DNA of 64,000 bases from a virus (taxonomy: Duplodnaviria > Caudoviricetes), in IMG/VR virus record IMGVR_UViG_3300043384_000010, positions 26,317 through 90,316 of that record; one strand, 5' to 3'. The notes under the pieces were generated by a model. It did no database searches, was not told the DNA's origin, and saw only the letters and a program-made list of their open reading frames with translations. Positions 6,335-38,015 of the stretch are shown in pieces. The translations under genes were made by a program, and so were the position numbers. The number at the start of each line of letters is the position of its first letter. Within the stretch, counting starts at the first letter, position 1.

Positions 6335-6658
6335 CTACCCCCCGTGCCCCCGCTCATGCTCGACCCGCCACCGCTGCAACTCCGCCACATCCGCCGCCAA
6401 CACCGCCAGAGACGGCGGGCCCTCCACCGAGGGCGGGACCGGAGCAGCCACCACCCGCACACCCCGGCCAGGCTCACCCACCACCAGACCCTCAGCCCGC
6501 AGCAACGCAGTCGCACGCTGCACCGGACCCTGCGACACCCCGAACTCCTGCCCGAGCGCCGTAGTGGACGGGATGAGAGCCCCGACAGGGTAGGTGCCTG
6601 ACGCGATCCGGGTACGGATCGTGTCGGCGATGTCCTGCCAGGACGACGCGGCGGTCAC
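6335..6658 (-). CDS. GntR-family winged-helix repressor (KorSA/TraR-like), divergent from the transfer operon
   Basis: WQDIADTIRTRIASGTYPVGALIPSTTALGQEFGVSQGPVQRATALLRAEGLVVGEPGRGVRV. Confidence 0.85.
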   Translation of the reverse strand: MTAASSWQDIADTIRTRIASGTYPVGALIPSTTALGQEFGVSQGPVQRATALLRAEGLVVGEPGRGVRVVAAPVPPSVEGPPSLAVLAADVAELQRWRVEHERGHGG

Positions 6659-6754
6659 GTGGTGACCTGCGCAGACGTGGGACGCATGCCGTACATGCTG
6701 CACCAACACGCCGCGATCTCCTACGCCACCCGGGCGCCTCTCCTGCCCGGTTTC

Positions 6755-6792
6755 TGGACAACCACGGATACCTAGTGCACCCTGTATCCGTG
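6755..6792 (+). promoter_or_regulatory. Candidate transfer-operon promoter with inverted-repeat operator
   Basis: TGGACA-N17-CACCCT overlapped by a perfect 9-bp inverted repeat CACGGATAC-N12-GTATCCGTG (6763-6792). Confidence 0.5.
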
Positions 6793-6810
6793 ACCACAGG
6801 AGAGGCACCA

Positions 6811-7005
6811 GTGGTGAAACGGACAGAACGGTCCCCCCTATGGCCGGCGCTTCTCCTCGTCTCCGAAGCCGCCGAACTGCTCCGTGTTCACACCTCAACC
6901 GTCTACCGGTGGTGCCGGGCCGGGACCATCCCCTCACTCCGGGTCGGTGGGTCCGTCCGGATCCACGCCGACCACATCCGGACCCACCTGGAGGGTGCCT
7001 CGTGA
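6811..7005 (+). CDS. Excisionase/BldC-like HTH protein
   Basis: LLLVSEAAELLRVHTSTVYRWCRAGTIPSLRVGGSVRI; AGGAGAGG RBS. Confidence 0.8.
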   Translation: MVKRTERSPLWPALLLVSEAAELLRVHTSTVYRWCRAGTIPSLRVGGSVRIHADHIRTHLEGAS

Positions 7006-7508
7006 GTACCACCGCCGACACCGCAGACTGCAGTGCCAACCTCACAATCAGGCAGGTCGCCCGGGCCTGCGCAGCGTCCGTCACTGCCGTTGCCCGGATG
7101 GTCCGGGAGGGTCTAATCAAGGCCCACCGCGACCCGATCGACGGCACGACGTGGCGGATCCCTCAGACGGAGGTCGCCGAGGTCGTCAAGATCAGGGCCG
7201 AGTGGAGGGTGTCCGGTCCTGGGGTCGCCAACCGGCGGACCGCCCCGCCGGTTGGGGGCCTCGACTGGCAGGACGACGGAAAGTGCCGGGACCGACCCGA
7301 CCTGTACATGGGTCCGTACGGGGAGTCGGCACCACGGAAGCGGCGCCGGGAGTCGGCTGCGGTCGCGATCTGCGCCACATGCCCGGTCATGGAGACGTGC
7401 CGCAGTTACGCCCTCGCCGGGAGTGAGAGGTACGGAGTCTGGGGTGGCCTCACTCAGGAGGCGCTGAGGGCGGCCGTGAAGTTGAGGTACAAGCAGGTGG
7501 CGGCGTGA
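7002..7508 (+). CDS. HTH domain fused to a WhiB-family Fe-S domain
   Basis: N-terminal LTIRQVARA...VARMVREGLI; C-terminal WQDDGKC...CATCPVMETC...YGVWGGLT. Confidence 0.8.
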   Translation: MSTTADTADCSANLTIRQVARACAASVTAVARMVREGLIKAHRDPIDGTTWRIPQTEVAEVVKIRAEWRVSGPGVANRRTAPPVGGLDWQDDGKCRDRPDLYMGPYGESAPRKRRRESAAVAICATCPVMETCRSYALAGSERYGVWGGLTQEALRAAVKLRYKQVAA

Positions 7509-7717
7509 CCCCGCTCCCGTGGCGGGGCCGGGGCGCCATCCGTCCCGGCGACGCGCTACCGCCGCGACGGGCAGCGCGTCGGCAGTGCGCGTGCCCGGTC
7601 GAGCACGGCACCCACATCCCCGGGCAGTGCCGTCACACCGTCACCGACGGGCCCCTCACCACCGGATGTCCCTGCGGGACCGCATCAGACCACCACACAC
7701 CACTCAAGGGCGGGTGA
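7505..7717 (+). CDS. Small Cys/His-rich hypothetical protein
   Basis: GTGA overlap; CAC...H..GQC.H....CPC. Confidence 0.45.
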   Translation: MTPLPWRGRGAIRPGDALPPRRAARRQCACPVEHGTHIPGQCRHTVTDGPLTTGCPCGTASDHHTPLKGG

Positions 7718-7727
7718 CCCAAACATC

Positions 7728-8120
7728 ATGTTCGTGACCCTCGGCGGGGCGGCTGTCGCCCTCATCGTGGCCGCTGTCGCGCGCAGGTCCGGTCTCCGGG
7801 CAGCCGAGGAGGAGGCGGACCTCACGGTCGAGCGGATCGCCTGGAACATCGAGTTCGGTCACCCACTCGGGTCCACCCCTACCGGGGCGACACCCCGGAA
7901 GCGGCTGCGGGCTGACCTGCCCCCATGTCACGGGAAGCTCCTCGTCCATGAGGACGGTCACCAGACCTGCGTGGGCGGCCGGGACGACTGCTGGCCCGAG
8001 CATGAGACCACCTACAGCCACCGCCGCACCGCCGCATGCAACGCACAGAACCACGGGTGCGGCACCTGCCAGACGCCCGGCTACCAGCCAGCCGCAGGAC
8101 CCGACCGCAGCCACTATTGA
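7728..8120 (+). CDS. Membrane-anchored Cys-rich hypothetical protein
   Basis: N-terminal hydrophobic helix followed by several Cys/His clusters. Confidence 0.55.
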   Translation: MFVTLGGAAVALIVAAVARRSGLRAAEEEADLTVERIAWNIEFGHPLGSTPTGATPRKRLRADLPPCHGKLLVHEDGHQTCVGGRDDCWPEHETTYSHRRTAACNAQNHGCGTCQTPGYQPAAGPDRSHY

Positions 8121-8134
8121 ACTGAGGAGTCAAG

Positions 8135-8659
8135 TTGAACGAGCAATGGAATGCACTTCTGATGTCGGGAGGGTGGGTCTACCTTCTGCCTTTCGTGGCG
8201 GTGATCACCGCTGCTGTGGGCTACATCCGCAGCATCCAAGTCACCACGGATCCCATGCCCCTGCCCCCATCCAGGATCATCCACGGCGACGAGTTGACCG
8301 ATGGGATGACGGTCCTCCTCGACTGCCGGGGCAGCCGCTGCCTGTACGCGGGTGACCACGGCCCGACGGCCGTCCATCCGTTGACGGTGATCCGCATGCG
8401 CCTGTCTGGCGCCTACCGGTACCCGGTGCTGTCTGACCTGTCTGGGACGGAGCACGACATGGCCCCGGTCTACCGGCACGCGACTGTCCGGGTCGCTGGG
8501 GGACCTGTCCAGACAGTCAGCCTCAACCTGTCTGGGACCTGTCTGGCAGACAGGGCCGACCTGTCTGCCGACCTGTCTGCCGACCTGTCTGCACCGCCGA
8601 GCACCAACCTGTCTGCCAGACAGGCAGACCTGTCTGCCCGACCTGTCCACGCCGACTGA
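8135..8659 (+). CDS. Membrane-anchored protein (Spd-like) whose 3' end carries the octamer repeats
   Basis: One TM helix; the C-terminal ADLS repeats are encoded by GACCTGTCTGCC. Confidence 0.55.
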   Translation: MNEQWNALLMSGGWVYLLPFVAVITAAVGYIRSIQVTTDPMPLPPSRIIHGDELTDGMTVLLDCRGSRCLYAGDHGPTAVHPLTVIRMRLSGAYRYPVLSDLSGTEHDMAPVYRHATVRVAGGPVQTVSLNLSGTCLADRADLSADLSADLSAPPSTNLSARQADLSARPVHAD

Positions 8660-8689
8660 CCGCAGACAGCCCGACCTGTCTGACCTGTC
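8436..8689 (+). repeat. Array 1 of (G/A)ACCTGTC repeats; candidate TraB recognition sequences
   Basis: 12 copies of ACCTGTC at 8436, 8503, 8526, 8537, 8559, 8571, 8583, 8607, 8628, 8641, 8674, 8683. Confidence 0.85.
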
Positions 8690-8718
8690 TGCCACCCACC
8701 AGCCCTGAGGGACCGATC

Positions 8719-8928
8719 GTGACTCGCATCCGCATCATCGACACCGCCAGGCCAGGGCGCCGGCTCGAACCGGAGTCATCCGCGGACGTCACACCGACGG
8801 ACGTCCCAAAGCTGATGCAGATCCTCCAGGGGCGTCGCGCAGTCCGGCCGGACTGGAGGGGACGCCGGCTGGCGATCGAGGCGTACGACCGGCGCCATGG
8901 CTGGCTCAGGTACGAGCAGCCCCTCTGA
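8719..8928 (+). CDS. Small basic hypothetical protein
   Basis: GAGGG RBS; lies within the transfer module. Confidence 0.5.
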   Translation: MTRIRIIDTARPGRRLEPESSADVTPTDVPKLMQILQGRRAVRPDWRGRRLAIEAYDRRHGWLRYEQPL

Positions 8929-8980
8929 CATGCCCCCGGGCACCCCTCGAACCCCCTCTCGACCCTCGTTACTCCAAACA

Positions 8981-9061
8981 GGGGGGTAGGGGGGTAGGGG
9001 GTAGGGGAGCAGGGCTCAAACGCGTAGGCGAGAGGGGGGTACCCCCTACCCCCTACCCCCC
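8981..9061. repeat. G-tract / C-tract inverted repeat (G-quadruplex-capable)
   Basis: G6-TA-G6-TA-G5-TA-G4 followed by C5-TA-C5-TA-C6. Confidence 0.8.
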
Positions 9062-9105
9062 TCACAAACCAGCACCAACCGTCACAAACTAGGAAAGGAC
9101 CACCA

Positions 9106-9558
9106 GTGACTACCTGGCAGTACGTGGGGGCCTTCCTGGTCCTCGGATGGATCTTCCTCGGCATCTGCGTCGGCCTCGACCTCGGCGGCGTCAAGTCGAT
9201 CGCGGTCGACGTCTTCGAGGTCATCGGCGCCGCGTCCGTCCTCACTGCGGGCGCACACCTCGCCCGCGGGACGTGGGCATACCGCTTCATCGGGTGGATC
9301 GTCCACATCCACCCGGTCGCCGGATATGTGGCGTTCCTGGCGATCCTCGTCGGGATCGTCCTGTTCGTCGTGGCTGTCCTCCCGGCGCGGGTGTACAGCG
9401 CCACCTCGGTGACGATGTCCATCGCCGTGTTCGGGGTGTTCCTGCCGTCGCTGCTCGTCCAGGTCAATCTCCCCGGGACGTGGGGTAGCGCGATCAGCGA
9501 CGCCTGCGCGGTGCCCATCGGGTTCTTGGTTCAGGTGACCGGGGGTGCATGGGGGTGA
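9106..9558 (+). CDS. Polytopic membrane protein (Spd-like)
   Basis: About 4 hydrophobic helices in 150 aa; AGGAAAGGA RBS. Confidence 0.7.
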   Translation: MTTWQYVGAFLVLGWIFLGICVGLDLGGVKSIAVDVFEVIGAASVLTAGAHLARGTWAYRFIGWIVHIHPVAGYVAFLAILVGIVLFVVAVLPARVYSATSVTMSIAVFGVFLPSLLVQVNLPGTWGSAISDACAVPIGFLVQVTGGAWG

Positions 9559-9562
9559 CGTG

Positions 9563-9772
9563 GACAGGTCCGGCACAGCCAGACAGGTGGTCGTGGACAG
9601 GTCGCAGACAGGTCCCGTGGACAGGTGCAGACAGGTCAGACAGGTAGTGCCAGACAGGTCCCAGACAGGTCGGTGGACAGGTCATGGACAGGTCCGGCAG
9701 ACAGGTTCCAGACAGGTAGGCAGACAGTCAGACAGTCAGTCCCAGACAGGTAGAGCAGACAGCCAGACAGGT
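9563..9772 (-). repeat. Array 2 of the same motif in opposite orientation, intergenic; candidate clt
   Basis: 15 copies of GACAGGT at 9563, 9582, 9596, 9607, 9620, 9630, 9639, 9653, 9664, 9676, 9687, 9700, 9711, 9745, 9766. Confidence 0.88.
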
Positions 9773-9777
9773 GGTCA

Positions 9778-10992
9778 GTGATGGACCTACTCCTCCTCAT
9801 CCTCGTCTCCACGGGGATCGTGACGTGGCTGAGCGCAGAGCCGGACGGGGTCGCCGCTGGCGTCCGCGGCGCAGCCACCCGGGCGTTCAGCGAGGGATGG
9901 TCGGCGGGCAGCCAGTCCGCCGCGCGCCGCTGGCAGGCAGGTGAGGCCGACAGGGCAGGACGCCGGAAAGTAAGACACAAGCGGTGGCGAAAGACACGGA
10001 AGGGTCGAGCGTTAATCGCCGCCGACAGGGCAGGACGGGCCACAGTCGGGGCCACCGTCAGAGGCGCCCGACTGGTCATCCCCGCTACAGCAGACGCCAT
10101 CGGAGCAGCCCGGCGTGCAGCACCACAGGGCTGGGCAGAGCGCCGCGAAGAGCGGCGGACACGCCAAGAAGAGAAGGAGTCGAAGGAGAAGCGGGAGCGG
10201 AAGGCCAAGAAACACCGCGAGACCGGGCGCGCCGCTCAGCCGGAAACCCCCGACATCACCACTCGACCAGGAGCCGCGGAGATCGACCCGCAGCTCATCG
10301 AATGGGCCAAAGCACCCGACCCGGCGGCGGCCGGGGTGACGCGCCCCGCTGCCACGCCCGACCCCATGACTCCGGACGCCGTCCGACCGGAGATGACAGA
10401 CCCGACGGCAGCCCGGACCTGCTGGCGCCGCGGATGCGACCAGCAGGCTGGCGACTCCGGTGTGTGTCCGGAGCACGCACCAGTCACCGTGGAATGCCCG
10501 CACTGTGAGAAGACGCAACTCGTGCGCCGTGAACACGCCGACGCGGCTAGGCAGGCGATGGCCGAGGGGTGCCCGCAGCGGCCCGGCTACAACCCATCAG
10601 CAGACACCCGGCACCCCGCCGGGTCAGCTAAGGGAGGAACACCAGTCATGGGAGAAATCGGCAACCACACCGATCTGCAGATGGAACTCCAGAACAAGCT
10701 GGAGGCGCTCGAAAGTCTCGTCGCGGACGTCAAGCAGATGATCAGCGCGGCAACAGAGGAGGCAGAAGCCACGGTCAAGCAAGCCCAGGGCTACGCCGAG
10801 TCCCTGGATGGCGGGCGGTTCGGTGAGATCGTCCACAAGGCGATCGGGACCGTCATGGAAGCCGCTGGGGCGGTGCTGAAGCAGGTCACCGCGATGCGCG
10901 AAGCCGGGGACGGCTTTGAGAAGTCGACCGGCGAGTTGGGGGACGCCATCGGAGCGGCGGAGAAGGAGACGGTCGCCGCCGTCGGCGCCTGA
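9778..10992 (+). CDS. Membrane-anchored multi-domain protein of the transfer module (TM, charged region, Cys motifs, coiled coil)
   Basis: N-terminal TM helix; CWRRGC..C..H and CPHC motifs; helical C-terminus with an internal RBS and ATG at 10648. Confidence 0.65.
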   Translation: MMDLLLLILVSTGIVTWLSAEPDGVAAGVRGAATRAFSEGWSAGSQSAARRWQAGEADRAGRRKVRHKRWRKTRKGRALIAADRAGRATVGATVRGARLVIPATADAIGAARRAAPQGWAERREERRTRQEEKESKEKRERKAKKHRETGRAAQPETPDITTRPGAAEIDPQLIEWAKAPDPAAAGVTRPAATPDPMTPDAVRPEMTDPTAARTCWRRGCDQQAGDSGVCPEHAPVTVECPHCEKTQLVRREHADAARQAMAEGCPQRPGYNPSADTRHPAGSAKGGTPVMGEIGNHTDLQMELQNKLEALESLVADVKQMISAATEEAEATVKQAQGYAESLDGGRFGEIVHKAIGTVMEAAGAVLKQVTAMREAGDGFEKSTGELGDAIGAAEKETVAAVGA

Positions 10993-11016
10993 CCAAGTCG
11001 GCCTGCGAGAGGTTAG

Positions 11017-12998
<1,982 letters not shown>

Positions 12999-12999
<1 letters not shown>

Positions 13000-13982
13000 T
13001 GTCCGACTACACCGATCCGTCTCTCGCTGACGAGGAGGGGGTTCTGGCGAAGACTGGGTGGCCGATGGCGTCCGCTATCGGCGTGGTCGCGGCAGCGGCC
13101 ATGGTGGAGGCCGGATACAACCTCGGCTGGTTCGTCGGTCACACCCTGCACCTCCCGGCGCCCCTCGCGGTCATGTTCCCGTTGATCATGGAGACGGTCG
13201 CGGGCACGCTCGCCATCCAGGACCTGAGAGACCGCCGCAGAGGACACGACAGCACAGCAATGAGGGCCGCGACCTACGCCACCCTGGCGCTGTCGTCCGT
13301 GATCAACGGACTTGTCGGCGCAGCATCCTACGGCCCCGCGGGGCTCCTGGAGATCCTGCCCCCGCTAGTCCTCGCCCTGGTGATCCACCTCCATGGCGAC
13401 CGGGCCACCAGGGCGTGGCATTCCCGGGCCGTCACCCGCCCCGAATGGCGTGCAGCCCGGCACCGGGAGGCGCGCGTCGACTCCGTCCTCGCCGTCCTCC
13501 CGCTCCTCCTCGGTGACGACGAACACGGCAAGGCCACTGTCGCGCTGCTCCGCCGCCGGCTGGAGTCGTGCACCCTGGAGCCGGGCCATGCACTGGTCTC
13601 CGCCGGGTGGGGTGACCGGGTAGCCCGGATTGAGTCCCCGTCAGCTCTGCGACGGCTGGAAACGATCGCCGACACAGTGTGGGGTGACGGTGAGCGGCCC
13701 GCCGGGGCGCAACCCGAGGTACAGCCTGCCCCCACCCAGAGGGAGCCAGCGCCCCACACGTCAGACGTGAACTCTCCGACGGCGCCGCCAGCCATCGGAG
13801 TGGATCGCCGGGGCGCCACCGACGACGAGATCCGCGCCGTCCTCGCCGAGGCGGGATGGCCCGGCCGAACCATCGCGGCAAGACGCCTGACGGACGCTGG
13901 TCTCCCATGCGACACTGGACGTCTCGCGGACATCCTCCGCGAGCACAAGGCGGGCCCGACACTGCGGGCCATCGCCCTATGA
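12999..13982 (+). CDS. DUF2637 / SpdA-like membrane protein with C-terminal HTH
   Basis: 4 TM helices (AMVEAGYNL..LAVMFPLIME..LALSSVING..LPPLVLALVIHL); TAATG coupling to traB. Confidence 0.7.
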
Positions 13983-17946: not shown

Positions 17947-19146
17947 TTACGCGACGAGTTGCCGCGCGCGTTGGGGTTCGCGCTTCACGGACCGGGCCGA
18001 CTTCACCCTGTCTCCACGCGCTGCCACCGCACGTCCTGCGGCGGGTGTTCGATCTGCGATGTTGCGTGCCGCATTCACGTCCGCGTTCGCCTGGTGCCCG
18101 CAAGCCACGCACCGGAACACCGCTTGACTCTCGCGGGATTCTCGGGCGACATGCTTGCAGGCGTTGCAGGTCTGCGACGTGTACGCGGGGTTGACCTTCT
18201 CGATCCGCCCGAGGGCCTTCTGTTCGGTGCGGATCAGGAGCAGTGTCCAGCCTGCGGCGAGGATCCCCCGGTTGAGTCCGGCCTTCTGCCGGACGTTGCG
18301 GCCCGGAGCCTCCAAGGTGCCACGGGCGGACCGGGTCATCGCCTTGACGTTGAGATCCTCGAACCGGACCACGTCGAAGCGTCGGGCGAGGTCGGTGCTG
18401 GTCTTCTCGGCCCAGTCCTTCCGCCGGTCGCCGTCGCGGGCATTCAGCCGGGCGATGGCCATCTTCACCCCGGTGCGCCGGTTCGAGCCCCGCTTGGCTC
18501 GGGCGAGGCGTCGTTGCAGGCGCAGGAGTCTCTCGGCTTCCTTGGGTCGCAGTCCGGCGGGGCTGGTCATTTCCCCGGTAGACAGGGCGACCGCGGCCTT
18601 CACGCCCCGGTCGACGCCGACGATCTCTCCGGTGCCGGGTGCGGGGATCGGGTCCGGGATCGCAGCGAACGCCACATGCCAGCGGCCCGCACGGTCCCGG
18701 GTCACCCGGTACGACTTCGCGTCCGGGACCTGCCGGGAACGCTTGAACCGCACCCATCCGACCTTCGGAACCCACACGCTGGACCATTTCGCGTTGTCCT
18801 GCCGGACCCGGAAGTCCTTCCCGACAACCCGCAACCCTTCCGACTGGCCGCGTTTCCGCCACGTCGGCCGGTCGTGGGTGCCTGCGAAGAAGTTCCGCCA
18901 CGCCTGGTCCAGGTCCCGCAACGCCTGCTGCTGCACACCCTGCGGGCCGTCCCGCAGCCACGGTTCCGCGGCGCGGGCTTCGGTGAGTTGACGGCACTGC
19001 TCCGCGAACCCTGGGGTCGGGCCCTGCCAGCGGCGCCACATCAGGCGCTGCTCCAAGCCGAGGTTCCACACGTACCGGGCGTGTCCACAGATCTCCAGCA
19101 GCAGGACCTCCTGCGCTGGGGACGGGTACAGCCGGTAACGACTCAC
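17947..19146 (-). CDS. tnpB: RNA-guided endonuclease TnpB (IS605 OrfB type)
   Basis: RYRLYPS HTH; RuvC motifs GVDRG, RFEDL, NADVNAARNI; Zn finger CNAC/CVAC. Confidence 0.93.
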   Translation of the reverse strand: MSRYRLYPSPAQEVLLLEICGHARYVWNLGLEQRLMWRRWQGPTPGFAEQCRQLTEARAAEPWLRDGPQGVQQQALRDLDQAWRNFFAGTHDRPTWRKRGQSEGLRVVGKDFRVRQDNAKWSSVWVPKVGWVRFKRSRQVPDAKSYRVTRDRAGRWHVAFAAIPDPIPAPGTGEIVGVDRGVKAAVALSTGEMTSPAGLRPKEAERLLRLQRRLARAKRGSNRRTGVKMAIARLNARDGDRRKDWAEKTSTDLARRFDVVRFEDLNVKAMTRSARGTLEAPGRNVRQKAGLNRGILAAGWTLLLIRTEQKALGRIEKVNPAYTSQTCNACKHVARESRESQAVFRCVACGHQANADVNAARNIADRTPAAGRAVAARGDRVKSARSVKREPQRARQLVA

Positions 19147-20861: not shown

Positions 20862-21053
20862 TCACGACGCCCACCCGATCCCCTCGATAGAGGCATGCCA
20901 GGACGTGCGCCAGGAGTGGCCACATGCTGGGCAGGCGTAGTGGCCGACCCCACCCACATCGGTGTCAGCCCACAACCACGGCGACGCCACCACGGTCCGA
21001 TTCAAGTCGGGGACACGGCACGCCCTCGGGCAGCCATCAGGGCGAGGCATCAT
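20862..21053 (-). CDS. Small Zn-ribbon protein
   Basis: CPRAC...YACPACGHSW. Confidence 0.55.
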   Translation of the reverse strand: MMPRPDGCPRACRVPDLNRTVVASPWLWADTDVGGVGHYACPACGHSWRTSWHASIEGIGWAS

Positions 21054-22354
21054 GACGCCGCCATGTCCACGAAGCGCGAGAAGTGGAGTTGCGCGGCGAG
21101 GACGACCGTTGTCGGTTCGCCCTTGCGTACCTTGTCGAAGATCACATCGACCTCTCCAGCCCGCGGGCTTTCCTTCTCGTACACGTCCTCCCGGTACAGC
21201 AGGACGACGACATCCGCGTCCGATTCCAGCGACCCCGATTCGCGTAGGTCGGCCATCATGGGCCGCTTGTCCTGCCGCATCTCCGGGCCGCGGTTCATCT
21301 TGGACACCACCATGATCGGGACGTGTTCGGCCATCGCCGTTGTCTTCAACCCGCGGGAGATCGCACCCACGGCTTCCTCCCGCTTCCCAGCACCTGGGGG
21401 GGTGGTCATCAGTTGGAGCTGGTCGACGATCACCAGGTCGGGGCGGTGGCGGCGGATAGACGCCCGCAGCGCGGGGAGCGTCAACTCCGCCGTGTCGTCG
21501 ATGATCAGGTCAGCGCCGTCCATGTCCTGGCGTGCCCTCGCGATCCTCTCCCACTCCCTGGCGTCCAGGGCGTGCTTCTGGATGCGCTCGTGGGACACTC
21601 CGGCCGCCAGGGCGACGATGCAGTCCTCCGTGTCCTCCCGGTCAACCTCCAGGGTGTGCAAGAGGACCCGCCTGTGTTGTTTCATCGCCACATGCGCGGC
21701 GATCCCCCGGACCAGCGTCGACTTGCCCATACCAGGACGAGCGGACACGACGATGAGCTGGCCGCCAGACATGGGGCGGACCTTCCGGTCCACATCGATC
21801 CACCCCCACGACAGACCCCCGACGTCGGTCCCGGTCTCAATCCGGTCGAGGATCGAATCGACCTCCCGGCCGAAGTTCGTGGCCTGCCCGGTCATCGCGA
21901 ACGACTCGGCGACCGCGGTGATCTCGGCCCCGGCGGCGGACACCAGGTCGTCGAGGTCAGCTCCGTCTGGGGAGTACCCGGACTGGGCGATCCGTGTCCC
22001 GGCCTCGATGAGACGCCGGAGGACCGCGCACTTCCTGACGATCTTGGCGTAGTAGCCGGCGCTAGCAGCCGTCGGGACCGACGAGAGGATCTCGTGCAGG
22101 TAGGCGGCCCCACCGACCCGGGACAGTTCCCCGAGACCTTGGAGTTCGGCGCACACCGCTACTGGGTCGGTTGGGGCGTCCCGGCCGTCGAGGTCGACGA
22201 TCGCGTCGAAGATGGTGCCGTGTGCTGGCCGGTAGAAGTCCACACCGGAGAGCAGCGAGACAACATCGGTGATGGCTGTCCGGGACATGAGCATCGCGCC
22301 TAGGACGGACTGCTCGGCAGTGACGTCCTGCGGTGGGATCCGGCCCTCAGTCAT
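21050..22354 (-). CDS. dnaB: Replicative DNA helicase DnaB
   Basis: AEQSVLGAML, ARPGMGKS, VDQLQL, DLRESGSLESDADVV. Confidence 0.95.
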   Translation of the reverse strand: MTEGRIPPQDVTAEQSVLGAMLMSRTAITDVVSLLSGVDFYRPAHGTIFDAIVDLDGRDAPTDPVAVCAELQGLGELSRVGGAAYLHEILSSVPTAASAGYYAKIVRKCAVLRRLIEAGTRIAQSGYSPDGADLDDLVSAAGAEITAVAESFAMTGQATNFGREVDSILDRIETGTDVGGLSWGWIDVDRKVRPMSGGQLIVVSARPGMGKSTLVRGIAAHVAMKQHRRVLLHTLEVDREDTEDCIVALAAGVSHERIQKHALDAREWERIARARQDMDGADLIIDDTAELTLPALRASIRRHRPDLVIVDQLQLMTTPPGAGKREEAVGAISRGLKTTAMAEHVPIMVVSKMNRGPEMRQDKRPMMADLRESGSLESDADVVVLLYREDVYEKESPRAGEVDVIFDKVRKGEPTTVVLAAQLHFSRFVDMAAS

Positions 22355-35967: not shown

Positions 35968-36205
35968 TAACTCAGGATCCGACGCGGGCTATGGGGGTAA
36001 GTTGAGTCAGTTGATCTCTCGGTTCGCGTGCAACGAGATCGACCAGGAGGAGTTCCTCACCGGCGTTGAGGGCATCGGGGATCCGCCGCCAGAGTCACCG
36101 ATGCCCAGGCTTGCGGAGACTCCCACGTCTACGCATGGGATCTCCCGCCCGCAAGATCTCCGAGATCGGGGTGCGTTGGTCGCAGCCCGGATCCGGCATC
36201 TGTGA
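35960..36205 (+). CDS. Hypothetical protein
   Basis: Overlaps the previous gene. Confidence 0.4.
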   Translation: MADNSGSDAGYGGKLSQLISRFACNEIDQEEFLTGVEGIGDPPPESPMPRLAETPTSTHGISRPQDLRDRGALVAARIRHL

Positions 36206-36253
36206 ACCTCACCCGAATAACACCTGTGGTTACCTAGCGCCGATCGTTCCACA
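36201..36253. other. Candidate attP
   Basis: Imperfect inverted repeat TGTGAAC...TAAC..GTTA...GTTCCACA just upstream of the serine integrase. Confidence 0.3.
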
Positions 36254-36299
36254 ACGACAGACGCTAGACTTCCCGGGATGTTACGGGAGGTCAACGCGC

Positions 36300-38015
36300 A
36301 TGTTAGGTCAAGGACGCGCCAGACGGGCGATCATCTACGCCCGTCAGTCCATCTACCGGGAAGAGTCTGCCAGCCTCGAAACACAGGTGGAGCACTGCCG
36401 GCAAGCGTGCGCTAGGTCAGGGTATGTGGTCGTCGGTGACCCGGTAGTCGACGCCGACCTGTCCGGGAGGTCGTTCAAGCGGCGGTCAATCGGCCCGATC
36501 ATCGACCGGGTCCGTGAGGGCGCCGCCGATCTGGTGGTCGTGTGGAAGTGGTCCCGGTGGGGTCGGAACACGAGGGAGTCCCTCAACTGGCTGGCCGAAC
36601 TGGAGGAGGCCGGGGGGCGGCTCGAAGCCGCAACGGAGGCACTCGACTCGACGACCCCCGTCGGCAAATTCAGCGTGACCCAAATGCTGGCTGTCGCGCA
36701 ACTCCTGTCCGACCAGATCGGTGACTCGTGGCGTGACGCCAGGCTCGGGATGGTCGTACGGCGGGCGCTCCCGCCAACCGGCGGCCAGCGACTGGGCTAC
36801 GTCTATGACCCTGCCACGAAGCTGTACGCCCCCCACCCGGTCGCCGGGCCAGCCATAGCTGACGCATACGACCGGTACGTCCACGGCGCGTCCGCGTGGG
36901 CGATCACCCTGCACCTGCGCGGGCGAGGCGTCACCACCACCCGGGGTGGGGTGATCACCGAACCGAGCGTGCGAGTCGCCCTCGACTCGGGGTTCGCTGC
37001 CGGAATGATCCGCCTCAACAATCCGGGCCGGATCTTCACCCCGGAGCAACTCGACAGCCTCGGGGTGGACGGGGACGGCCCAGTCTGGATCCCCAACCAT
37101 CTCCCAGACGGGGGCCGGTCATGGGAACCTCTCATCGGCCAGGACGTGTGGGAGCAGTACCGGACCAAGCACACCGAGCGGAAAGTCCTACCGCCGAGGA
37201 CCCGGAACCCGCGGCAGGCCCTCGCTGGGCTCCTGCGGTGCGCTGGATGCAACCGGCCGATGGCCTACCGTCCGGACCGAGGCAGGTGGCGGTGCCCGCA
37301 CGAGCCCGTGAAGAGCCAGGGGGAGTCATGCCCGGTGCGGGTGACGATCTCCGGTGCAGATGCCACCGATGCGGTGCGGGCGTGGCTGGCCGCCAGACAT
37401 GACCAGTCACGGGACCTGTCCGGGGAGGTGGCGCGGCGGATGAAGGGGGTCTCGGCGGTCGGGGACGTCGCTGCGATCGAGCGCGCCTTGGCCGACCAGG
37501 GGCGGCAGAAGGACCGGCTCGTCGCCGCAGTCCGGGACGGGCTCCTCGATGCGGACGACATCCGGGCGCAACGCGCCGCTATCGGGGATGCGGTGGAGAG
37601 GCTCACCGCGGACCTTGCGGCGGCCCGACGCAGGTCGGTGACGGCTGCTGTCGTGCCACGGGAGGTGTACGGGCTGCTCCTGGATTCCCTGGACGGCGGC
37701 GGTGTCCTTGATGTGGGGCGGGTGAACACGCGGTTGCGGGACGTGATCGACGCCGCGTATGTGTACCCGTTCCGGGACGCGCCGCGGGTCCGGGTGCGTG
37801 CCGTGTGGGAGGAGTGGGAGGCGCCCCGCGCAGTCGCCCCAACCCTGGATCACGTGGATGGCAGGGTGTGTCTGGGGTGCCGAGAGTGGCGGCCTGCTGG
37901 GGCGTTCCTGAGGCGCGCGTCCGGGCGCCTCATGTCCCGGTGTGCCGCGTGCCGGTCCGCCGCACACAAGGCGTGGCGGGGCGGCCGTCAGGCTGCGGAC
38001 TCGGCTCCTTCTTGA
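36300..38015 (+). CDS. Large serine integrase with extra C-terminal Zn finger
   Basis: IYARQS catalytic motif, DADLSG, WKWSRWGR, recombinase domain, LLRCAGC zinc ribbon, coiled coil. Confidence 0.92.
   Translation: MLGQGRARRAIIYARQSIYREESASLETQVEHCRQACARSGYVVVGDPVVDADLSGRSFKRRSIGPIIDRVREGAADLVVVWKWSRWGRNTRESLNWLAELEEAGGRLEAATEALDSTTPVGKFSVTQMLAVAQLLSDQIGDSWRDARLGMVVRRALPPTGGQRLGYVYDPATKLYAPHPVAGPAIADAYDRYVHGASAWAITLHLRGRGVTTTRGGVITEPSVRVALDSGFAAGMIRLNNPGRIFTPEQLDSLGVDGDGPVWIPNHLPDGGRSWEPLIGQDVWEQYRTKHTERKVLPPRTRNPRQALAGLLRCAGCNRPMAYRPDRGRWRCPHEPVKSQGESCPVRVTISGADATDAVRAWLAARHDQSRDLSGEVARRMKGVSAVGDVAAIERALADQGRQKDRLVAAVRDGLLDADDIRAQRAAIGDAVERLTADLAAARRRSVTAAVVPREVYGLLLDSLDGGGVLDVGRVNTRLRDVIDAAYVYPFRDAPRVRVRAVWEEWEAPRAVAPTLDHVDGRVCLGCREWRPAGAFLRRASGRLMSRCAACRSAAHKAWRGGRQAADSAPS

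Follow-up and report, generated by a model that had tools for sequence, protein, structure and literature searches.

In this study we show that an uncultured phage carries two arrays of one short word, ACCTGTCYR, that point at each other beside the gene for a TraB-like DNA translocase. The stretch analyzed (the window, 64,000 nt) comprises bases 26317-90316 of the 90,316-bp IMG/VR record IMGVR_UViG_3300043384_000010. The record is a complete tailed temperate phage: its completeness is 100% according to CheckV, and its structural genes include those for the major head protein, portal, large terminase and tail fibre. We tentatively read the two arrays as a cis-acting, clt-like docking locus of a phage-borne, plasmid-type module for the transfer of double-stranded DNA (dsDNA), and would give this reading not quite an even chance of being right. 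It is favoured because the arrays fit the published description of clt and sit in the right module for the translocase, P0001. By this analogy the locus most likely belongs to a known type of transfer site, of which it would be a two-sided form of unusual size, and its repeats are most likely docking sites for the P0001 pump or for a partner protein.

Copies of the heptamer ACCTGTC number 12 on the + strand (8436-8689) and 15 on the - strand (9563-9772), the very counts that an earlier note on this DNA had given from the sequence alone. The note took an octamer as the repeat unit; the repeat is real, but the consensus that fits all CTGTC cores is the 9-mer ACCTGTCYR, with ~37 sites when degenerate copies are included. 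Array A (8402-8693, + strand) holds 15 copies of the 9-mer with the core CTGTC and, in addition, four reversed partial copies reading CAGACAG at 8512, 8549, 8619 and 8665. Array B (9563-9774) holds 18 copies, every one on the - strand. Because of the four reversed copies in array A, the single orientation that had been claimed for each array is valid for the 7-mer but not for the core. Two perfect 17-bp palindromes of the form CCTGTCTG-S-CAGACAGG lie in array A (8538-8554 and 8608-8624), and exact CCTGTCTG is found only twice elsewhere in the window. The spacers are mostly 8-27 bp long, with a single gap of 46 bp in array A, yet the sites are phased, at 11.3-11.4 bp in array A and at 11.5 bp in array B (Rayleigh R 0.76-0.86, compared to a 99th percentile of 0.70 in simulated arrays). 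The strands of A and B that read ACCTGTC face each other across a central segment of 873 bp, a slight correction to the 870 bp first proposed; a hairpin and two genes lie in this segment.

The word is confined to these two clusters to a degree that chance does not provide. ACCTGTC has 37 matches in the window, whereas dinucleotide-preserving shuffles (n = 100) gave 11.3 +/- 3.1, and none of the 100 reached 37. Within the whole 90,316-bp genome 27 of the 46 copies fall in the two arrays; the other 19 (8 on the + and 11 on the - strand) compare with ~16 expected by chance and have no polarity. [quoted passage not shown] Both are words read by the winged helix of an FtsK-family motor; the array word too is polar and of the 8-bp scale, and its opposed polarity about a centre recalls KOPS converging on dif (PMC3384302). 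KOPS, however, are dispersed and skewed genome-wide, whereas a genome-wide count of number and orientation puts the array word at background level outside the arrays. Since it has no genome-wide polarity the word is not KOPS-like, and a guide motif of the KOPS/SRS type, which calls for genome-wide enrichment together with strand skew, was rejected. The GAC that the word has in common with the pSVH1 site GACCCGGA, also brought up in the earlier note, carries no weight.

Array A lies in a coding 3' end and array B in an intergenic gap, as had been described, and array A also runs 30 bp past the stop codon. The open reading frame (ORF) concerned, at 8135-8659 on the + strand, encodes P0003, a small membrane protein of 174 amino acids (aa) with an N-terminal transmembrane (TM) helix, a small domain and C-terminal (A)DLS repeats. 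Array A spans its last ~85 codons (tail ...ADRADLSADLSADLSAPPSTNLSARQADLSARPVHAD), and the (A)DLS peptide repeats are the translation of the array. Array B occupies the 219-bp gap between ORF 9106-9558 and ORF 9778-10992; the + frame ORF that runs through it (9545-9781) matched no database protein and none from its own record either. From the end of array B to the start of the traB-like gene there are 1,251 bp with one gene intervening. Array A lies within and past the small membrane-protein gene and array B just upstream of the genes for P0002, the TraB-like protein and a DUF2637-like protein.

Both arrays are contained in a ~7-kb, plasmid-like run of + strand genes (6840-13982) that is set between - strand phage genes. 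The order in this block is an HTH_17-WhiB fusion gene, three small ORFs, array A, a 69-aa ORF, the hairpin, a 150-aa ORF, array B, a 404-aa ORF (P0002), P0001 and the DUF2637-like gene. P0001 (657 aa; 11026-12999, + strand) has N-terminal TM helices, a Walker A motif GGGKGS and a Walker B motif LDELPE. Its AlphaFold AF2 model (mean predicted local distance difference test, pLDDT, 86.5) places a C-terminal winged helix of helix-helix-helix-strand-strand order at residues 597-655. The top Foldseek matches of the model are to the E. coli FtsK motor (2ius, 6t8g; E ~1e-12 to 1e-13), followed by TcpA, a coupling protein of conjugation, and by EccC. The winged helix modelled alone reached a pLDDT of 64.5, too low for a fold search. 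P0001 itself receives no score from Pfam FtsK_SpoIIIE and only a weak PHROGs match (phrog_1358, E 7.7e-5). An exhaustive profile search collected 343 representatives of the P0001 family, 42 of them at E < 1e-30. The profile of a 41-member family alignment matches EccC (1.3e-21) and FtsK (5.6e-6), both ATPases of the FtsK/SpoIIIE type, as well as many winged-helix domains at positions ~565-625, and Pfam FtsK_SpoIIIE scores 4 of the 41 aligned members at E <= 0.01 (best E 3.9e-7). As modelled, P0001 thus has the TraB architecture of membrane anchor, FtsK-type motor and C-terminal winged helix, which has been described for TraB of Streptomyces plasmids (PMC4447253). The TraB-type module that the earlier note had placed around the arrays is borne out by these features.

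In known clt loci direct repeats of 7-9 bp are clustered, usually together with inverted repeats; the clusters adjoin tra or spd genes or lie partly within them, and the cognate TraB binds them through its winged helix (PMC4447253, PMC3583192, PMC4170104, PMC11600335). The clt of pJV1 consists of nine repeats and two inverted pairs, that of pIJ101 of one inverted and three direct repeats, and that of pWTY27 of four TGACACC repeats partly within traA, while the repeats of pSTVU1 lie between korB and traB (PMC4447253, PMC3583192, PMC11600335). The phage locus resembles the clt of pSVH1, pJV1, pIJ101, pWTY27 and pSTVU1 in several ways: a 7-9-bp word is clustered on the element in direct and inverted copies, it lies beside and within a tra/spd-type block, and the element encodes a TraB-like translocase with TM helices, an FtsK motor and a winged helix. 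In other respects it departs from them. It has ~37 copies instead of the published 3-9, and these form two arrays that have opposite polarity and are separated by 873 bp. The locus is situated 1.25-2.6 kb upstream of traB and not at the traB 3' end, it is strictly phased at 11.4 bp, it is carried on a tailed phage, and its TraB is too divergent for a Pfam FtsK_SpoIIIE score. The earlier note had contrasted the locus with a clt made of one set of direct repeats. The contrast was overstated, since direct and inverted repeats occur together in known clt loci as well, but the large scale and the split into two opposed arrays are indeed unusual. Also counted for the clt-like reading are the confinement of the word to two clusters among co-oriented genes that end in the TM, FtsK-motor and winged-helix protein and the DUF2637-like protein, and the fact that partners for alternative functions are missing: ParA, ParB and Prim-Pol are absent from the genome, its replication genes lie at 19-31 kb, and the repeat next to the GntR-type gene differs from the array word.

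How could such a locus work? In Streptomyces-type conjugation uncut double-stranded DNA is moved by a single FtsK-like pump, and how this pump comes to be loaded on circular DNA, and in which orientation, is an open question in the field. What we infer from architecture and analogy throughout is that P0001 reads the arrays, that they act in cis in transfer and that they impose direction. The TraB-like hexameric pump that is encoded 1.25 kb downstream might read the ~37 copies of ACCTGTCYR with its C-terminal winged helix, and many pump subunits would then assemble at the repeats on excised or replicating phage DNA. The DNA would be driven from one hyphal compartment or cell to another through a pore in the membrane. 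As A and B point at each other, motors that load on them would face opposite ways, so that two hexamers could work on a circular molecule's two arms. Whatever its detailed mode of action, a large, polar, two-sided array beside such a divergent pump would be a convenient natural substrate for tests of loading, polarity and stoichiometry.

Midway between the arrays there is a hairpin (8980-9062) in which GGGGGTA, repeated 3.6 times, faces three copies of TACCCCC, with perfect arms of 20 nt and a spacer of 35 nt. It holds 5 of the 7 genome copies of GGGTAGGG (3 on the + and 2 on the - strand, convergent). GGGTAGGG matches the E. coli KOPS consensus GGGNAGGG, which across the genome shows neither enrichment nor polarity. 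A search of Rfam gave no family above its gathering score and only generic hairpin matches on 8980-9062; the structure could act as a terminator or as a second protein site, or form a G-quadruplex. One could imagine a bipolar transfer site, in which the two convergent arrays load two TraB hexamers oppositely so that both arms are pumped at once, and in which the central convergent GGGTAGGG hairpin marks the first- or last-transferred point or a hand-over to host FtsK. Two-arm pumping has been proposed for SpoIIIE on chromosome arms. We regard this elaborate form as improbable, although if it were true it would explain how a ring motor moves uncut circular dsDNA in Streptomyces-type conjugation.

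Several observations weigh against a docking locus for TraB. A cooperative protein filament would account for 11.4-bp phasing over 200-290 bp no less well than ring loading does. Phasing and 37 copies together exceed what a ring loader would need and resemble the sites of cooperative filaments or centromeres, and known clt loci make do with 3-9 repeats. The module offers further possible DNA binders. Among relatives, a provirus with one other family member (L065) has no array in the 10 kb read, where the upstream side ends after 742 bp; the ORF directly upstream of its TraB-like gene is cut at the contig end, and its tail resembles the P0002 C-terminus by eye, without alignment. Finally, a scan of IMG/VR for the array pattern, which returned mostly coding repeats of 15-bp period, also found two contigs of 63-64% GC in which the same 9-mer ACCTGTCTG is repeated ~17 times, at 9-11 bp spacing and in mixed orientation (L019:900-1140 and L031:9078-9341). 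These contigs have no protein in common with the phage and neither has a TraB-like gene. Because the array occurs there without TraB, an array of ACCTGTCYR need not be a TraB site.

The first of these points raise the alternative that another protein of the module binds the arrays as a phased nucleoprotein filament, which might act as an adaptor, a centromere-like stability site or an operator of the transfer genes. We consider this possible, if doubtful. Candidate binders are the 174-aa P0003, whose own gene carries array A, the 69-aa ORF and the HTH_17-WhiB fusion, which has an Xis-like helix-turn-helix (HTH) of a type that binds direct repeats. The phasing common to both arrays would suit such a protein, and the two perfect palindromes in array A look like dimer sites. 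Array B, which follows a strong hairpin and directly precedes P0002, traB and the DUF2637-like gene, has a typical operator position. There is also a precedent: SpdA2 of pIJ101 binds a motif (sps) within its own coding region, which yields a peptide repeat, SRDD in SpdA2 and (A)DLS here, where binding is putative (PMC4170104), and SpdA interacts with TraB and with Spd proteins (PMC4447253). Here as in pIJ101 the word lies inside a small gene of an spd-type block. However, sps is a 12-bp palindrome in 1-3 copies compared to a 9-mer in ~37 copies here, and P0003 has no detectable similarity to plasmid proteins. Neither P0003 nor the 69-aa and 150-aa ORFs contain a recognisable DNA-binding domain, and none of the three has a Pfam, NCBIfam or PHROG match. 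A plasmid centromere (parS/parC) was rejected: phased repeats are present, but the complete genome has no gene for a ParA-type (AAA_31) or ParB (ParB_N) partner, ParM not having been searched for. Rejected as well was a Kor-like role of the short GntR-type winged-helix protein as the array reader. Its gene (~6335-6700, - strand) is divergent from the HTH_17-WhiB gene (6840-7508, + strand), and between the two lies a perfect 9-bp inverted repeat, CACGGATAC-N12-GTATCCGTG (6765-6794), which is likely its operator and is unrelated to the array word.

The contigs L019 and L031 point to a different alternative, in which the arrays are iterons of a plasmid-type (theta) origin that came with the module, with the opposed sets flanking the replication start. 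Their array lies directly 3' of a gene for a 658-aa protein with Prim-Pol and AAA_25 domains (P0006), and in these contigs it probably serves as an iteron origin built on the same word. The origin of pWTY27, too, has opposed sets of a 7-9-bp repeat in ~300 bp, with five GTGGGAAC repeats and five on the other strand in addition to inverted repeats (PMC3583192). The central GC-rich hairpin of the phage locus could be a structural element of an origin. Yet the arrays of pWTY27 and of L019/L031 abut a RepA or Prim-Pol gene, whereas the phage has neither: no initiator, Prim-Pol or helicase gene is found in the ~7-kb module and no Prim-Pol gene anywhere in the genome. The phage's own DnaB, beta-clamp and other replication genes are 11-20 kb from the arrays on the opposite strand. 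An AT-rich unwinding stretch is missing, the lowest GC content being 53%, and iterons typically measure 17-22 bp. With neither an adjacent initiator nor an AT-rich element, an iteron origin was set aside, and we give it only a slim chance. Six copies at 8641-8651 and 9563-9693 read ACCTGTCCAC (reverse complement GTGGACAGGT) with the core TGTCCAC, which resembles the Streptomyces DnaA box TTGTCCACA. As the main explanation of the arrays DnaA boxes were rejected, as the majority of copies have the variant TGTCTG, which is unlike the box.

Conservation of array A could be followed in one relative. P0157, encoded on a 10.8-kb ENA contig, is an 82%-identical homolog of P0003 that keeps the DLS/LS tail and differs in it by insertion and deletion of whole units (+GLSA, -ADLS). 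Since repeats are kept with gain and loss of whole units, array A is, on this evidence, conserved in its word and changes by whole 12-bp units. Such copy-number change, and the translation of array A within an ORF, might also be expected if the arrays had no dedicated sequence-specific function at all and were microsatellite-like DNA prone to slippage, a repeat in the encoded peptide, or what decay has left of the ends of an old inverted duplication or mobile element. We consider this very improbable. The 9-mer and the phase are kept while spacers vary, and a gap without coding sequence contains the same word in opposite orientation. Neither array is a copy of the other, their longest inverted match being 43 nt at 74%. 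An inverted duplication or transposon ends were rejected, because the arrays have only the word in common and the central segment has no transposase.

For a docking locus read by P0001, the conservation of the winged helix is of interest. P0001 has only two homologs at moderate distance, P0004 (53%) and P0005 (56%). P0001 and P0004 are 53-56% identical overall and ~75% identical in the winged-helix region (residues 584-657; manual count on the alignment), and a stretch of 10 residues in the recognition helix is identical in these two and different in P0005. The high identity between P0001 and P0004 in this region fits selection that keeps one DNA specificity.

The P0001 family is rare in cultured genomes. 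There was no match in GTDB contigs, and in tblastn searches neither P0001 nor P0013 matched any INPHARED phage. Among plasmids P0013 found no tblastn match and P0001 two weak Streptomyces matches only (29-31% over ~143 aa). A search for related loci with family alignments found none in genome or metagenome contigs and the single provirus L065 in viral contigs, and a scan of metagenomes for the array pattern gave no relative among the matches listed. The only plasmid match of P0001 is a very distant AAA protein of 815-831 aa on two Streptomyces linear plasmids, L067 (NZ_CP109398.1) and L068 (NZ_CP108263.1). These plasmids have 15-17 copies of CGGACCG, part of GACCGGA, in ~290 bp (L067:1027-1485 and L068:2165-2838). 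In L067 the copies occur in both orientations inside a large hypothetical coding sequence, 3-4 kb upstream of the AAA gene.

Plasmid-phages with tra genes are already known, for example pZL12 (PMC4487206, PMC3583192). Like pZL12 (phage ZL12, GQ919031) and relatives such as pSLE1, the present phage is a tailed phage with a genome of ~90 kb, from a high-GC actinomycete, that carries tra genes (PMC4487206, PMC3583192). When we inspected the pZL12 record we found ParA/ParB and a Tra3-like gene; pZL12 also replicates as a plasmid, whereas this phage has a large serine integrase (36066-38015) and no ParA/ParB. The Tra proteins of pZL12 have no protein similarity to those of this phage, and the first 50 kb of pZL12, in which the tra3-like region lies, contain no dense k-mer array. 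Some actinomycete phages carry plasmid transfer modules, as was published for pZL12, and the locus adds to the evidence for this. Such phages may spread as naked DNA through the mycelium besides spreading as virions.

Of the remaining genes in the block, the two between the arrays are the 69-aa ORF (8719-8928, + strand) and the 150-aa ORF (9106-9558, + strand), with a GC content at third codon positions of 0.86 and 0.91, respectively. The latter is hydrophobic with several TM helices and would be Spd-like by position alone. P0002 (404 aa; 9778-10992, + strand) has a TM helix at the N-terminus together with a basic stretch and a Cys-rich segment, and its C-terminus is helical. The DUF2637-like membrane protein (12999-13982, + strand) matches PF10935 at E 9.8e-5 with 22.7 bits, compared to a cut-off of 22.8, and its start overlaps the traB stop. 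On the replication side of the phage, at 19-31 kb on the - strand, are genes for a DnaB helicase (21050-22354), a DNA polymerase III beta clamp encoded by the phage (24700-25824), a C5 methylase and a Mu Gam-like protein. The phage also carries a TnpB/Cas12f-like gene (OrfB_IS605) at 17947-19146 on the - strand. Lastly, 121 bases are identical at both ends of the record (1-121 and 90196-90316), which suggests a circular or circularly permuted assembly, although the IMG/VR label is 'linear'.

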